In this document: positions 89 to 7,787 of the stretch, piece after piece
How positions within the stretch are numbered: the first letter of the stretch is position 1
Layout of the letters: each line of letters begins with the position of its first letter
The notes under the pieces: generated by a model
Databases searched by the model: none
What the model was told of the DNA's origin: nothing
The model's input: only the letters and a program-made list of their open reading frames with translations
Position numbers and translations under genes: made by a program
Assembly: GCA_963784355.1 (NCBI GenBank)
Contig: CAWAQU010000003.1
Location: 115,548 to 179,547, forward strand
Length of the DNA: 64,000 nt
Reading direction: 5' to 3'
From: an uncultured bacterium
Lineage (GTDB): Bacteria; Patescibacteriota; JACMRA01

Positions 89-730
89 TTAATTTTGTGG
101 AACAATTTGCTTGGGGCTAGGTATTTTTTCTACGATTGTTTCAAGTAATTTATCAACTCCCAATCCTGTCTTAGCGCTTACATGCAATATTTCATCTCTT
201 GGATAACCTAAAATTCTTTCAATTTCCTCACTTCTAGTTGCAATATCCGCATTTGGTAAGTCAATTTTATTTAAAACGGGGATAATAGCCAAATCCTGTT
301 CCATTGCTGAGTATAAATTTGCTAGAGTTTGAGCTTGAATACCTTGGGTAGCGTCTACTACAAGCACCGCGCCTTCACAAGCGGCCAAACTACGGGAAAC
401 TTCATAAGAAAAATCCACATGTCCGGGTGTATCTATTAAGTTTAAAACGAAGTTTTTGCTTTTCCAAGACTCGTATTTTTGGATATCTTCAGTACTCAGA
501 TCAATCATTTCATCATTTTCAGCAGTAAACTGATAATTATAATTCATTCTAACAGGCTGTAACTTTATTGTGATGCCTCTTTCTCTTTCCAAATCCATTT
601 TATCTAGGGCCTGCTCTTTCATATCACGCATAGTAACAGTGCCAGTAAGCTCCATTAATCTGTCGGCTAAAGTACTCTTCCCGTGATCAATATGGGCAAT
701 AATACAAAAATTTCTAATAAACTCAAGCAT
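89..730 (-). CDS. lepA: Elongation factor 4 (LepA), G domain only, C-terminally truncated
   Basis: [41 protein letters not shown] motifs; TAA after 213 aa where LepA is normally about 600 aa. Confidence 0.9.
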
Positions 731-1886: not shown

Positions 1887-2638
1887 GAAACCCAACTCAA
1901 CCAAGTTTGGATAATTTTTATTTGGTCTTCATCTTTTAGGTCCAATTCAGGGTGCCATTGCATCCCCAAAATTTTTTTGTTTTTTATAGAGACTGCTTCA
2001 ATTAAACCATCCGGAGCCACTGCTTCTACTTGTAAACCCTCGCCCAATTTGTCTACTCCTTGATGATGTATACTTGTCACCATGATTGTATTTTTATTTA
2101 AAACATCATATAGGATTCCATCTTTTTTTAAATCTACTGGGTGCACTTTTCCGGTTTCTACACTTTCATTATCAAAATCTCCATCTTCCTGCTTTTCTGC
2201 AGTATATTTAATGTGCTGCACTGGAGCATTTTCATCAAGGTGCTGAATTAAAGTACCGTTTTGGACTACGTTCAACATCTGGAAGCCACGACAAACAGCT
2301 AGTACAGGCAAATTCCTTTCCATTGCAGCTCTAATTAAATAGTAGTCATACCAATCTTGAAAATTTTCGCTAGTTTTATTTTCCGGTCCAGTAGTGTACA
2401 TACCTGGATCAATGTCTTTACCTCCAAGTACTATTAATCCGTCAGCCTCGCTGATATATCTGGAAATTTCATCTTTTATGGTTTCCATATCATTAATTTT
2501 TGTGTGGAAAAAAGGTACTTGTGGTAAAAAACTCTGTTCAAGTAAAAAATCGGACCATTTACTATGAATATAAATTATGGGCAAACCTTCTTTATAGGTC
2601 ATAAACCTTGGTGAAATTAGTATTTTTTTCATTTTCAT
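1883..2638 (-). CDS. Gamma-glutamyl-gamma-aminobutyrate hydrolase family (peptidase C26, class I glutamine amidotransferase fold)
   Basis: GGKDIDP, LAVCRGFQMLNV (catalytic Cys), SIHHQ, QWHPE. Confidence 0.88.
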   Translation of the reverse strand: MKMKKILISPRFMTYKEGLPIIYIHSKWSDFLLEQSFLPQVPFFHTKINDMETIKDEISRYISEADGLIVLGGKDIDPGMYTTGPENKTSENFQDWYDYYLIRAAMERNLPVLAVCRGFQMLNVVQNGTLIQHLDENAPVQHIKYTAEKQEDGDFDNESVETGKVHPVDLKKDGILYDVLNKNTIMVTSIHHQGVDKLGEGLQVEAVAPDGLIEAVSIKNKKILGMQWHPELDLKDEDQIKIIQTWLSWVS

Positions 2639-2651
2639 AAAATTTAATATT

Positions 2652-2673
2652 AAAAAATCTCCCTAAATGGGAG
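2652..2673 (-). terminator. Intrinsic terminator (attenuator 3:4 hairpin) 5' of the C26 gene
   Basis: Minus strand CTCCC-attta-GGGAG-ATTTTTT, 13 nt before the ATG. Confidence 0.75.
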
Positions 2674-2706
2674 TGATAAAAAATTGGTATAGATAATTTT
2701 GCTCCC

Positions 2707-2763
2707 TTAATTTGGATTGTCTATGTCACAAGTACAAGCTAAAAGTAACGCAAAATTTAACAT
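2707..2763 (-). CDS. Putative leader peptide MLNFALLLACTCDIDNPN
   Basis: 57-nt ORF starting 6 nt after a -10 box; anti-terminator GGGAG directly follows the TAA. Confidence 0.7.
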   Translation of the reverse strand: MLNFALLLACTCDIDNPN

Positions 2764-2769
2764 GCTTTA

Positions 2770-2798
2770 ATTATGGCAAATAATCTATTTCGTGTCAA
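2770..2798 (-). promoter_or_regulatory. Sigma70 promoter for leader peptide and C26 gene
   Basis: TTGACA-17 nt-CATAAT on minus strand. Confidence 0.8.
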
Positions 2799-2926
2799 AA
2801 TGGTATTCATTTTCTTGTGAAAAAGTTAGGAATTAGATTGAACTCACTTTATAATTGCATAAAGTAGTCCCATCCTTTGATTTAAAGCACAATTTCTAAT
2901 TTAGGTCAATAGATGCGTAGGAACAA

Positions 2927-3472
2927 TCAACTAAACTGATAGCCTTTCAATTGATTTTTATGGTTTTTAAAATCAAGATCAAACTTGCCGACCAGATCCC
3001 AAAAAGATTTAGAGTGGTTTTTTTCTTTTACATGAGCAAGTTCATGGATTGCCACATAGTCTAGTAGCTCAAGTGGCACCAAGGCCAGTCTCCAGTTTAG
3101 ACTAATCACATTTTTACCGCTACAAGAACCCCAGCGCGTATTAGCACTTGAAAGACGAAATTTAGTATAATTTAAGTCCATAACTTCTGACCAATGATCC
3201 AGTCTAGACTTAAGTAAAACTCTGGCTTTCTTTTTAACTTCAACCTCTTCGCTTTTAGCAACCCCAAGATTGGGGGCAGTATTTCGCTTTCTTTCTAAAA
3301 CTCTTTTGATAGTATTTTGTATCCAAATCTGTTTTTTTTGAATAAAATCGTGTATGAGATTTAAATTTGCTCTATTGGGTGCCCTTACTATCAATTCCGC
3401 ATCTTTGGTGATTTGCAGACTGAGAGTTTTGCGTTTTGAGTAAATGATGTTTTTGGGAGTAATAAGGCTCAT
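2927..3472 (-). CDS. YgjP/DUF45 (M48-like) metal-dependent hydrolase
   Basis: SKRKTLSL, RWGSCS, YVAIHELAH, NHSKSFW. Confidence 0.85.
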   Translation of the reverse strand: MSLITPKNIIYSKRKTLSLQITKDAELIVRAPNRANLNLIHDFIQKKQIWIQNTIKRVLERKRNTAPNLGVAKSEEVEVKKKARVLLKSRLDHWSEVMDLNYTKFRLSSANTRWGSCSGKNVISLNWRLALVPLELLDYVAIHELAHVKEKNHSKSFWDLVGKFDLDFKNHKNQLKGYQFS

Positions 3473-6400
3473 TATGATTCTTTTGATTCAAAAAACCTAG
3501 CTACATTCCAGATTTTATTTCCAAAATTGCGATATTTTTCACACATTTTGTCCGCAAGTTTTCCACCGAGTCTAAAATTACGATTTGGAATCATGTTGCT
3601 CATCATCGCCAATCTAAGACTATCTGAAGAAAATTTTTCAATCTGATCTTCCACATTTAACCCGTTACCTAGGGATTTGCTCATTTTTCGTCCATGCTCG
3701 TCTAGAACAGTTGGGTGAATAACTACATTTTGGTAAGGAGTGCTGCCTGTAAAGTATTTTGAGACCAACATCATGCGCACAATCCATTGGTAAAATATCT
3801 CTCTGGCACTAACTAAATCTTTGGTAGAGTAATATGTTTCAAAATCAGTATTTTTCTGCCCTTGCAGATGGTCTAAATATCCAAGTGTACTAAGCGGCCA
3901 CAAACAAGAACTAAACCATGTATCTAGTATTTTTGTTTCCTGCATCCAATTTCCTGGAATTTCAGGTTTTTCCGTACCGATTTGGATTTTTTCTTGGACT
4001 GCAGGATCATTTTGCCACTCATTAAAATTATAAAAAATGCGATTTGGATTTTTTTCTAAATTGTACCACACAGGGAATCGATGACCCCAAACCAGGTCTC
4101 TTGAAATACACCAGTCTTTTACACTTTCCAGATAGCTTATTGCTCTGTCTTTAAACTCTACCGGGTAAAAATTAGTTTCCTCAGCAGCTTGTAAACCGAT
4201 TTGCTGTAAATTATTGGGTTTCTCAAGCCAAATTACTACAAGACCGTTGCTTTGAATTTTGTTGTAGTATTGCTCACCAAAAAGATTTTTATAGGTTTCT
4301 TTTATATCATTTATGGTATAATTTTCTTGAATTTCGGGTACAATTTGTGTGAAATCAAGTTTTACACTTGCAGCTGAATCTAGATTCTGATATGTCTCAA
4401 CTTTTTTAATGTTAAATTTGTAAATTTTGTTGTTTACTTTATCATTTAATTCTATAATATCTCCTGATTTCATATCACCAAAGTATTTGTCTGGTTCTTC
4501 AGGATTTAAAGCCCTAGTTTCAACAGATTTTTCTCCTGATAGGATTTTATTTAAAATATCTAACTGTAGATCATTTCTAAAATTTAAAGACCAGGTTTTA
4601 GTATTGCTATCTTCACCAGTACTTTTTACTACAGGATTAGTGTAGCTCAAGAAGAACTCTTCTGAAATTAGGGGTTCAATAACCGTTTTTGATCTCTCGC
4701 AAATTACCACATTATGCTCATAATCCCAATTTATATCCAGTTCTTCACCAATTAAATCACGTAGAAATTTTATTCCTTCTTTGTATGAGTAGTTTGCTGG
4801 ATCAAAAGCTTCACTTTTTAGACTTTTGGCTACTTTTTCCCTAATTTTTGCTTCCTGTTCAATAAATTCGGTTTTTACTGGTACAAATTCTGTTTCTATA
4901 AGTTTTTTAATAACTGCTAACCTACCCTGCTCTACCGTCAACCCTTCAAACTCACCACAAGCTTCAGTAAGTTTTCCATCTCGATTTATAGGATGCTTAA
5001 ATCCAAAGCTATACCAACTTTTATTTAAAAATTCTTGATATAATTCATAATCAAATTGATCACTGGCCGGAGTGATTTTTAATATACCTGTACCAAAATC
5101 CGGATCGACTTTTTCAGAAATCAGAAGCCTAATCTTTTTTATATCCAAACTGGGTAGCTCAAAAGATATACCTAAAAGACCCGTTTTAATTGCTTCAATG
5201 GTTTCCAATGCAATTTTTTCATCAAATCCCCCATGGTCTCTTTCAAAAAGATCTAAGTTAAAGTATTCATAAAATTTACTTGGGTGCATGGCGATTCCAA
5301 TATCCCCAAAAATTGTCTCCGGCCTAACAGTTGATACTTTTACTCTGGGTAATTCAAGAGCGGATTTAATATATTTAGAAGCAAACTCATACAAAAAGGC
5401 TTTGTCCGGATTTTTATTTTGATCAAACTCCACCCCACTAAATTTATACTCAAAAGTAATAAACGGATCCACTCTATTTTCGTACTCAATTTCCCCGGCC
5501 ACATCACTCACCGCAGTTTGCAGGCCAACGGACCAATTCACCAAATAGCTCCCTTTGTAAATCAACCCATCTTCCCAGTACTTTTGAAAAGCATAATTTA
5601 TCATTTTATTAGCTCGCTCGTCTAAAGTAAACAAACTTCTTTGATAGTCCGGAGTGTCTCCCAAAATAGAACTTTGCATTTTTTGATGATCTCGCCACTC
5701 ATCCACCTTGGACCAAGCTAAATCAACCCAAAGTTCTCGGTTATTTTGTTTTAACCACTTTGGCCAAGTATTTTTTTCAATATCTTTCAATTCAGGTGCT
5801 GTTTCTAAGATTTTTTCATCAAAATCACCTTTTTTAATCAATTTATCAATCACCCCTTCCAACTGTATTCCGGCATGATCTACTCCCGGATACCATAAGG
5901 TTTTTTGAGCTTTTTGTCTGTGAATTCTGGTTAAAGTGTCCATTAAATAGTGTTGAAAAGCATGTCCTGTATGTAAGGCTCCAGTAAGATTTGGCGGGGG
6001 CATTAAAATGCTATAATTCTCGTTAGCACCTACCTCCTTATGTAAAAATTCAATTATTTTAGGACTGATTGGGTACATTTTAGTCGCATAAAAGTCATAT
6101 TTTTCCTGCTCAGATGTAAATTCATTAGTGGTGTGTCCAATTTCATCTGGTATAAAGAAAGTAGAATAAGAATTTTCAATTCCAAATATAGGCTTTTCTG
6201 TAGCAGTACCCTGTGTGATATGTTCTTCAGTTAATATTTCTCCATTTGGCAAGGCAATAGCCAGAGCCTGCACCACATACATTTTTCTGTCTTTTCCTTC
6301 AAGTTTTTCTAAGGCCTCATGAATTTTTTGCTCGGCAAATCTATCCCTATCTTCTTTAGACAATGAGTTGAAATATTCATCACTATCTCCAAACATTACT

Positions 6401-6798
6401 TTTTTACTATCCGTTCCAGGCCAATCTAAAGCTGAAAAGACAAAGCCCCTGTCTTGTGAAATTGTGGGTAAATTACTAATTTTAGCATATTCTTTAGCTT
6501 TAGTCAGGGCATCCTGTGTAAAACTCTCTCCGGTTTCTTCAACTTCAGGAAAATCAATATGTGGTAAATCATTCAAAGTCAGCAGTTCAAAATGCTTATC
6601 TAGAGCAAGTTTTTGCCAAGCTAATTTAAAAATTTTAATTTTGTGTTTGTTGGTAGTTGCAAACAGGACTTTTTTTAATGAAGTCTCTAAATTTTGATTT
6701 TTTATTTGAATTTCAGGTGAACCCACTCCATTATTTTGCCAGGTATTATAGATACTTTCTTCAAATTCTTTCGGATTATAGCTGCTAGGCAAAGACAT
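3472..6798 (-). CDS. valS: Valyl-tRNA synthetase catalytic part with inserted HAM1 and ASCH domains; anticodon-binding domain missing
   Basis: PPPNLTGALHTGH, PGVDHAGI, TVRPET, WCISRDLVWGH, DTWFSS, KMSKS; ends at RNFGNKIWNVARFFESKES. Confidence 0.92.
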   Translation of the reverse strand: MSLPSSYNPKEFEESIYNTWQNNGVGSPEIQIKNQNLETSLKKVLFATTNKHKIKIFKLAWQKLALDKHFELLTLNDLPHIDFPEVEETGESFTQDALTKAKEYAKISNLPTISQDRGFVFSALDWPGTDSKKVMFGDSDEYFNSLSKEDRDRFAEQKIHEALEKLEGKDRKMYVVQALAIALPNGEILTEEHITQGTATEKPIFGIENSYSTFFIPDEIGHTTNEFTSEQEKYDFYATKMYPISPKIIEFLHKEVGANENYSILMPPPNLTGALHTGHAFQHYLMDTLTRIHRQKAQKTLWYPGVDHAGIQLEGVIDKLIKKGDFDEKILETAPELKDIEKNTWPKWLKQNNRELWVDLAWSKVDEWRDHQKMQSSILGDTPDYQRSLFTLDERANKMINYAFQKYWEDGLIYKGSYLVNWSVGLQTAVSDVAGEIEYENRVDPFITFEYKFSGVEFDQNKNPDKAFLYEFASKYIKSALELPRVKVSTVRPETIFGDIGIAMHPSKFYEYFNLDLFERDHGGFDEKIALETIEAIKTGLLGISFELPSLDIKKIRLLISEKVDPDFGTGILKITPASDQFDYELYQEFLNKSWYSFGFKHPINRDGKLTEACGEFEGLTVEQGRLAVIKKLIETEFVPVKTEFIEQEAKIREKVAKSLKSEAFDPANYSYKEGIKFLRDLIGEELDINWDYEHNVVICERSKTVIEPLISEEFFLSYTNPVVKSTGEDSNTKTWSLNFRNDLQLDILNKILSGEKSVETRALNPEEPDKYFGDMKSGDIIELNDKVNNKIYKFNIKKVETYQNLDSAASVKLDFTQIVPEIQENYTINDIKETYKNLFGEQYYNKIQSNGLVVIWLEKPNNLQQIGLQAAEETNFYPVEFKDRAISYLESVKDWCISRDLVWGHRFPVWYNLEKNPNRIFYNFNEWQNDPAVQEKIQIGTEKPEIPGNWMQETKILDTWFSSCLWPLSTLGYLDHLQGQKNTDFETYYSTKDLVSAREIFYQWIVRMMLVSKYFTGSTPYQNVVIHPTVLDEHGRKMSKSLGNGLNVEDQIEKFSSDSLRLAMMSNMIPNRNFRLGGKLADKMCEKYRNFGNKIWNVARFFESKES

Positions 6799-6848: not shown

Positions 6849-7277
6849 CTAACTTTGATACTCGCCATCAAGCAAACTCTGGAAATTTGAAAATAGAAAA
6901 TTTTGTGGTAATTCCTTATAATCTAGCCACCTGGCAATACAACTATCCGCTTCAAAAGCGGCAAAATCCGAATCAATTTCCATATAGTAGTTATAGCTTG
7001 TTTGTTTAAGATTATAATTATCCGGTTTAAAGACCCAGCCGTAGATACTTTTTCCCAAATAAACTTTTTTAGTGATTCTTTCTCTAGAAATCCCAGTTTC
7101 TTCCTCAAACTCGCGTATTAAAGCTTGGTCCGGACTTTCGCCCTCATCAATCCCACCGCCTATAGCTGAATACTTAAAATTTACATAAGGATTATGCAGC
7201 TCCTCAAACACCAGATATTTTTTGGTTTCAGGATTGAAAATTATCGCTTTTGAACTTTCCCTGTACTTTGTTTCCAA
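6849..7277 (-). CDS. NUDIX hydrolase (true N-terminus probably extends to about 7316)
   Basis: GGGIDEGESPDQALIREFEEETG Nudix box. Confidence 0.85.
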   Translation of the reverse strand: METKYRESSKAIIFNPETKKYLVFEELHNPYVNFKYSAIGGGIDEGESPDQALIREFEEETGISRERITKKVYLGKSIYGWVFKPDNYNLKQTSYNYYMEIDSDFAAFEADSCIARWLDYKELPQNFLFSNFQSLLDGEYQS

Positions 7278-7712
7278 ACCATCTTGAAAATGATATTCTT
7301 CTTTTAAGTAATTACTTTACATCAAAGATTTATAGTTCTTCAGTAACCAATTTCCCCATGAGCCCATTTCTGCCAAAATTTCTTGAATGCTCAACCACCG
7401 GCTAACACATTGGTCTGCTTCAAAACCTTCGATTGTACTTGAAGTTTCCAAATAGTATATTTCATGAAAATACTTGTAGTTAATCATTTTTGGTTTCATC
7501 ACAAAACCTTGTATAACTGAGCCAAGATAGTTGATTTTAGTAATTTCAGATTTTTTAATGCCGGACTCCTCTTCAAATTCCCTAAGTAGAGTTGTTTCCG
7601 CATTTTCTCCCAGGTCGGATTTGCCTCCAATAAAACTATATTTGTCCCAGGCGTAAGGATTGCCAACTTCCTCAAACACCAGATATTTTTTGGTTTCAGG
7701 ATTGAAAATTAT
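7201..7712. repeat. 44-bp identical direct repeat (7201-7244 and 7669-7712) shared by the two NUDIX genes
   Basis: tcctcaaacaccagatattttttggtttcaggattgaaaattat occurs twice. Confidence 0.9.
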
Positions 7713-7787
7713 AGCATGAGCTCCGATAACTTCCTTATACTCAGTTAAACTTGGATCAAAACTATATTCTTCATAAAGTATAGGCAT
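7317..7787 (-). CDS. NUDIX hydrolase
   Basis: GGKSDLGENAETTLLREFEEESG Nudix box. Confidence 0.87.
   Translation of the reverse strand: MPILYEEYSFDPSLTEYKEVIGAHAIIFNPETKKYLVFEEVGNPYAWDKYSFIGGKSDLGENAETTLLREFEEESGIKKSEITKINYLGSVIQGFVMKPKMINYKYFHEIYYLETSSTIEGFEADQCVSRWLSIQEILAEMGSWGNWLLKNYKSLM

Follow-up and report, generated by a model that had tools for sequence, protein, structure and literature searches.

The 64,000-nucleotide stretch analysed here (the window; contig CAWAQU010000003.1, positions 115,548 to 179,547, of the Patescibacteriota assembly GCA_963784355.1) carries one piece of a valyl-tRNA synthetase (ValRS) that is probably made from two genes. An open reading frame (ORF) of the window, valS-N, encodes the catalytic and editing body together with, at its end, the first anticodon-binding-bundle helix. 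The anticodon-binding bundle and the C-terminal coiled-coil tRNA arm of ValRS were found only on a separate ORF of 271 amino acids (aa), valS-C, outside the window on another contig. The best explanation is a real, conserved two-gene ValRS that functions as an assembled heterodimer, to which we give a probability of about 0.82. The firm part of this case is that the two ORFs complement each other, that the breakpoint is conserved, that selection on the pieces is purifying and that no other valS was found in the genome of the window (G000) or in a relative assembled as a single contig (G018). G000 was assembled as a metagenome bin (13 contigs, 1.14 Mb) whose marker count puts its completeness at 81%; the window lies on its contig C3 and valS-C on contig C9. 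Coordinates are window positions unless another contig or locus is named, and all window features described are on the (−) strand.

The 1108-aa ORF valS-N (3472..6798) comprises a Rossmann fold, the CP1 editing domain, the KMSKS loop, the stem-contact region and the first anticodon-binding-bundle helix. Pfam tRNA-synt_1 (PF00133) matched residues 258-1067 with an E-value of 4.1e-83, and both class I signatures were present: HIGH, as HTGH, at residues 276-279 (5962..5973), and KMSKS at residues 1038-1042 (3673..3687). The core of the CP1 editing domain (5059..5331) contains TVRPET at residue 490 and GTGILKITPASD at residue 569, which we take to be the ValRS editing motifs. The top NCBIfam model was valS (NF004349), with 461.8 bits compared to 166.2 bits for ileS, and its match ended at profile position 580 of 860. 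The C-terminus reads RNFGNKIWNVARFFESKES up to the stop, six residues beyond the helix NKIWNVARF (residues 1094-1102; 3493..3519). This terminal helix aligns with residues 581-589 of the Thermus thermophilus structure 1GAX and is predicted to be where valS-C docks. The ORF ends in a TAATG (3470..3474), in which one base is common to the TAA stop of valS-N (3474..3472) and the ATG of the following gene (3472..3470). That gene (ygjP; 2927..3472) encodes a YgjP-like metallopeptidase of 181 aa (PF01863, E-value 8.8e-44) and sits where valS would continue. Anticodon_1 had no match in valS-N or across all of contig C3, so valS is not continued downstream in the window. A preliminary description, made from the letters of the window, had singled out positions 3472-3560, the final 29 codons of valS-N. 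It had noted intact HIGH-like, editing and KMSKS motifs, a stop at the anticodon-binding helix with TAATG coupling to a YgjP-family gene, and no ValRS continuation downstream, and it was correct in every one of these details.

The same description had proposed either a two-subunit ValRS with its C-terminal half encoded elsewhere or an anticodon-independent enzyme, and the first proposal is supported by valS-C (G000:C9:137779-138591, (−) strand). When the whole assembly was searched with Anticodon_1, three matches were obtained: an isoleucyl-tRNA synthetase (IleRS) of 1223 aa (TIGR00392, 623.5 bits, above the 621.4 cut-off), the C-terminal piece of the leucyl-tRNA synthetase (LeuRS), and valS-C, which was the one stand-alone Anticodon_1/Val_tRNA-synt_C ORF in the genome. 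The Anticodon_1 domain of valS-C covers residues 16-152 (PF08264, E-value 1.9e-17) and is followed by Val_tRNA-synt_C, the ValRS-specific coiled-coil arm, at residues 208-257 (PF10458, E-value 2.3e-07). Its best NCBIfam match was again valS (NF004349, 120.4 bits against 26.4 for ileS), spanning profile positions 585-859 of 860, so that the two pieces abut within five positions. Against the structure, the tail of valS-N aligned to 1GAX 379-589 (E-value 1.3e-36), ending at the helix NKLYNAARFV, and valS-C aligned to 625-845, with its residue 32 at 625. This places the cut in the loop that follows the first bundle helix. The one-chain bacterial ValRS of T. thermophilus has the same domains in the same order as valS-N plus valS-C; here, by contrast, they are in two unlinked ORFs, and valS-N bears Ham1 and ASCH-like inserts. 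In work on 1GAX, the bundle and the coiled-coil arm reportedly recognise anticodon positions A35 and C36 and grip the elbow of the tRNA.

Searches of G000 with PF00133, PF08264 and TIGR00422 gave one ValRS, together with the IleRS, the LeuRS and a 511-aa class I enzyme. Genes for both tRNA-Val(TAC) and tRNA-Val(GAC) are present in G000. The full-length valS elsewhere that the preliminary description had allowed for was found neither in G000 nor in G018, a single contig of 1.27 Mb. Contigs C3 and C9 are alike in composition: their GC contents are 0.328 and 0.338, respectively, and their tetranucleotide usage correlates at 0.996.

The distribution of the split was surveyed in 26 species-level genomes from 18 genera of the same Patescibacteria family. 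In 16 of the 26 genomes valS-C occupies a short frame (265-329 aa), and in the other 10 a long frame (533-1302 aa). Nine genera are in the split state and nine in the fused state, and no genus is mixed. The breakpoint recurs: valS-N stops 1-20 residues past the ...ARF helix in 11 of the 16 split genomes (G000, G001, G008, G010, G012, G013, G018, G021, G022, G023 and G024), all 11 of which have valS-C. For the remaining five, the N-piece runs off the contig end in G015 and G019, its end was not recovered in G004 and G011, and G041 was not examined. The pieces share a contig and strand, with other genes between them, in G018 (5.2 kb), G022 (1.7 kb), G008 (3.3 kb) and G012 (3.0 kb); in G018 the intervening genes are ygjP and three other ORFs. 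Relatives with a fused enzyme run straight through the junction by way of plain linkers of ~15 to ~90 residues, and the loop is therefore tolerant of length changes. In public protein collections, valS-C was represented by 102 clusters (90% identity, E-value up to 1e-10), most of 259-302 aa; some were on contigs of up to 360 kb, one cluster occurred on 35 contigs, and "valyl-tRNA synthetase" was among the source names. G010 has two different ValRS N-piece ends (L065, G010:C42, and L067, G010:C12), both of which stop at the same loop and may represent two strains in one bin.

To other phyla, the split could not be extended. Many proteins of 250-300 aa from a 50%-identity library (24-32% identity) start with Met at the junction, and from the two members tested, P0176 and P0237, this candidate class was rejected as fragments. 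For these two, 12 of the 13 loci examined (160 fetched) were frames of 890-947 aa, that is, full-length ValRS, and the sole short frame (307 aa) was on P0237's own contig of 3,089 bp. The two-gene ValRS thus appears, so far, to be confined to one family.

Both pieces are maintained. Between G018 and G022, both species of genus g18, the ratio of non-synonymous to synonymous substitution (dN/dS) was 0.155 over the 822 codons of the N-piece, 0.114 over the 267 codons of the C-piece and 0.070 for the ygjP gene between them, ratios that are rough, dS being near saturation at 0.93-1.40, though far below 1. Judged by these ratios, both valS pieces are under purifying selection. A model of the complex was built from the last 250 residues of valS-N (16-row alignment) and valS-C (42-row alignment). 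It scored 0.80, 0.80 and 0.81 in three runs compared to 0.47 for the best of three controls, with a predicted local distance difference test (pLDDT) value of 88 for the partner and at least 95% agreement of contacts. Of 80 solved complexes, 58 reached the mark set for the model, as did 2 of 110 mismatched pairs. The modelled interface is formed by valS-N residues 1057-1071 and 1092-1106, the latter being the terminal helix (residues 234-248 of the modelled 250-aa piece), against valS-C residues 34-96. This predicted packing is that expected if the orphan helix completes the valS-C bundle. What the model indicates is a preserved interface, not that the pieces bind.

These data bear on the second proposal of the preliminary description, according to which valS-N alone would be an anticodon-independent ValRS using acceptor-stem contacts only, with valS-C an optional trans-acting tRNA-binding factor or a protein of some other role. 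Class I catalytic cores can weakly charge acceptor-stem helices, valS-N retains every catalytic and editing motif, and the pieces are unlinked in most genomes, so that no operon enforces strict co-expression. However, valS-C is kept wherever a truncated N-piece was verified, is under purifying selection as strong as that on valS-N, and retains the ValRS-specific bundle and arm. Exactly one bundle helix is left on valS-N, which would be sensible only as a docking element. An anticodon-independent enzyme is consequently disfavoured, and became unnecessary once valS-C was found; we regard it as improbable, although it is the strongest of the alternatives.

Somewhat less probable again is gene decay, in which valS-N would be a truncated pseudogene and valS-C a leftover, with charging performed by an unassembled full-length valS or by a host cell. 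The incompleteness of G000 and the small genome are in keeping with decay, as is the fact that ValRS is broken in other ways in neighbouring lineages (G014, in-frame TAG; G025, three ORFs; both described below). Against it, both ORFs are intact in nine genera with dN/dS well below 1, single-contig G018 contains no other valS, and both tRNA-Val genes have been kept. Rejoining of the pieces into one chain by split-intein protein splicing, RNA trans-splicing or recoding was considered since split inteins rejoin other split genes; nothing was found in its favour and it is very unlikely. valS-N ends six residues past the conserved helix and valS-C starts ~8 residues before its first conserved block, leaving no room for intein halves; the pieces are either on separate contigs or, where they share one, parted by other genes over 1.7-5.2 kb; and in fused relatives the gap is spanned by plain linkers. 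Finally, a chimeric join at 3472, or a contig C9 from another organism, has a negligible chance even for a 13-contig metagenome bin whose junction is not bridged by public reads, since the same stop occurs in 11 independently assembled genomes (one of them a single contig), ygjP still follows valS-N in G001, G018 and G022, C3 and C9 match in composition, and the N- and C-pieces are equally diverged from same-genus G001 (55-68% and 55%, respectively); conservation over independent assemblies likewise excludes the misassembly at the junction that the preliminary description had raised.

Several points weigh against a two-gene, heterodimeric ValRS, in addition to the near saturation of dS. The high score of the complex model may echo the internal packing seen in solved structures of one-chain ValRS, and we infer N-C assembly and activity here from the sequences and the model. 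Neither piece reached the valS equivalog cut-off: the NF004349 scores given above compare with 704 bits, and even their sum is too low, and with TIGR00422 valS-N (424.6 bits) and valS-C (79.5 bits) were both under the 612.1 cut-off. No TIGR00422/valS equivalog match above the cut-off was obtained in any of the five genomes searched. Such sub-cut-off scores are expected for pieces with large inserts. At its level of completeness G000 could itself hold a further valS, and the case for a single ValRS is carried by G018. Among public sequencing runs, one weak DNA match (share 0.20) and no RNA match were listed. The DNA reads yielded six unitigs of 36-151 bases, none bridging 3472; the unitig at 3459-3494 extends less than 31 bases to either side of that position. 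Upstream of valS-C, no promoter-like site was found beyond chance (6 sites in the region, 4.0 expected in shuffles), no obvious Shine-Dalgarno sequence was seen before the gene, and the scanned region of valS-C contained no terminators. The valS-C tree (26 rows, 274 columns; G041 left out) is poorly resolved, and stars mark just 4 of its 23 inner branches; the best topology requires four state changes, while the starred branches force only one. In an approximately unbiased (AU) test, a single clade of the 15 split rows was not rejected (p = 0.177), and one or several ValRS fission events are both compatible with the tree.

Taking the two-gene heterodimer as the preferred explanation, a Patescibacteria-type bacterium of ~1.1 Mb would build its sole ValRS from two unlinked genes. 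valS-N would provide amino-acid activation, transfer and editing and end in the first helix of the anticodon-binding bundle, and valS-C would provide the rest of the bundle, which would read the anticodon, together with the C-terminal coiled-coil tRNA arm. The two polypeptides would join non-covalently as an alpha-beta enzyme, the last helix of valS-N completing the valS-C bundle, and this enzyme would charge tRNA-Val like a one-chain ValRS. As for its origin, the cut would have been made in a surface linker of variable length when foreign DNA with its own stop and start entered that linker; the ygjP gene would still be at the cut, and later rearrangements would have separated the pieces. In G000, G001, G018 and G022 the next gene after valS-N is a YgjP gene, and in G012 a single other gene comes between the two; insertion into the linker is therefore the simplest and most likely origin of the cut.

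In addition to the cut, valS-N contains two inserts. A Ham1/ITPase-like domain (6103..6669) is inserted in frame at residues 44-232, between the N-terminal strand and HIGH (PF01725, E-value 1.1e-19). The excised piece scored an E-value of 2.7e-21, and RdgB/HAM1 models of NCBIfam also matched valS-N. In G018 and G022, Ham1 is a separate ORF of ~225 aa elsewhere in the genome. The second, an ASCH-like insert of ~150 aa (4192..4695), has weak similarity (PF04266, E-value 0.0015, 19.7 bits, under the 21.2 cut-off) and is missing from most relatives, whose matches to valS-N jump over query residues 723-860. Immediately upstream of valS-N are two tandem stand-alone NUDIX ORFs (6849..7277, 142 aa; 7317..7787, 156 aa), of the same domain family as four inserts in LeuRS.

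Other translation genes of this genome are also in pieces. LepA/EF4 is represented in the window (89..730, (−) strand) by a 213-aa G domain only (TIGR01393 positions 2-189), with a Mur-ligase-like gene next after it. The rest of LepA is a 413-aa frame at G000:C6:76583-77803 (+ strand) covering positions 187-594 (579.5 bits, above the cut-off). A two-piece LepA was present in all five relatives tested, including genomes with a fused ValRS, and in single-contig G018 its two pieces are on opposite strands with 216 kb between them. LeuRS is split at locus L068 (G000:C9:117000-127000), where all three ORFs are on the (−) strand. The N-piece (L068 4751..7891, 1046 aa) contains the editing domain and four NUDIX domains inserted in frame. 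The C-piece (2251..3420, 389 aa), which begins at position 437 of the leuS model, contains KMSKS and the anticodon-binding domain. An alpha/beta-hydrolase ORF of 192 aa (3451..4029) lies between them. Separate LeuRS frames were also found in same-genus G001, and one 1053-aa frame in G018.

A Ser-hydrolase-like alpha/beta-hydrolase of ~190 aa, a homologue (23-40% identity) of the free ORF parting the LeuRS pieces in G000, was found in frame inside ValRS in eight genomes (loci L056 in G005, L055 in G008, L065 in G010, L059 in G013, L064 in G015, L062 in G021, L061 in G023 and L063 in G024). It is inserted between the LWPLSTLGY and TDFE blocks, twice in G024. The ValRS of G025, which belongs to another family, is divided among three ORFs (407, 219 and 437 aa) within 8.5 kb (L051, G025:C25), and one of the cuts is at this same hydrolase insertion site. 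In G014 (L058, G014:C49), a single in-frame TAG occurs in ValRS where the ASCH-like insert sits, and the C-terminal module is fused. The breaks in G025 and G014 could be real splits or assembly errors.

The presence of split LeuRS and LepA beside ValRS suggests that gene fission is recurrent in this lineage. Tentatively, and short of even odds in our estimate, the ValRS split may be one symptom of a family-wide process in which gene-sized cassettes land in surface loops of translation genes: an insert in frame would become an extra domain, and one with its own stop and start would create subunits that drift apart. Most of these cassettes would be small hydrolases, including those of nucleotide house-cleaning (Ham1, NUDIX, the 190-aa alpha/beta hydrolase, ASCH-like and YgjP). 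If true, ValRS, LeuRS and LepA would all be heteromeric, with the same cassette caught in both states, and the family would offer a bacterial counterpart of the split-gene genome of Nanoarchaeum. Nanoarchaeum equitans has a small genome, a split AlaRS and essential translation genes in unlinked pieces. Its AlaRS is a class II enzyme of an archaeon, whereas here a bacterial lineage has ValRS, LeuRS and LepA split.

Class II offers a second comparison: in bacterial PylSn/PylSc, the tRNA-binding and catalytic domains are separate genes acting together. There the tRNA-binding piece is N-terminal and the genes are adjacent, whereas the ValRS tRNA-binding piece is C-terminal and unlinked. A likeness in class Ia is the alpha-beta LeuRS of Aquifex aeolicus, a synthetase naturally made of two polypeptides; according to PMC3643597, it is heterodimeric and the leucine-specific domain splits the enzyme into two subunits. 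The Aquifex cut is inside the catalytic body, at the leucine-specific domain near KMSKS, whereas in the present ValRS the catalytic body is whole and the anticodon module is the second subunit. The LeuRS cut of G000 is likewise not at the site that PMC3643597 gives for Aquifex. The enzymes also differ in amino acid, Leu in Aquifex and Val here. Full-text searches, with subscription journals and supplements outside their scope, found no natural split ValRS in the literature, and a full-text search for tRNA synthetase gene fission in Patescibacteria found no paper. Split class I synthetases are already known, and a two-gene ValRS is a new addition to them.

With neither piece over the curated valS threshold, automatic annotation will not call either of them valS, and surveys of completeness or metabolism will record ValRS as missing or truncated in such genomes. 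Split synthetases, which are rare, serve as natural experiments on the modular build-up of these enzymes. The cut in this ValRS is exactly at the border of the catalytic-plus-editing body and the anticodon-reading module, a border long proposed to part the older and later-added halves of class I synthetases. Persisting over nine genera with its pieces unlinked, the split would provide a ready system in which to ask how much of tRNA-Val recognition works in trans.

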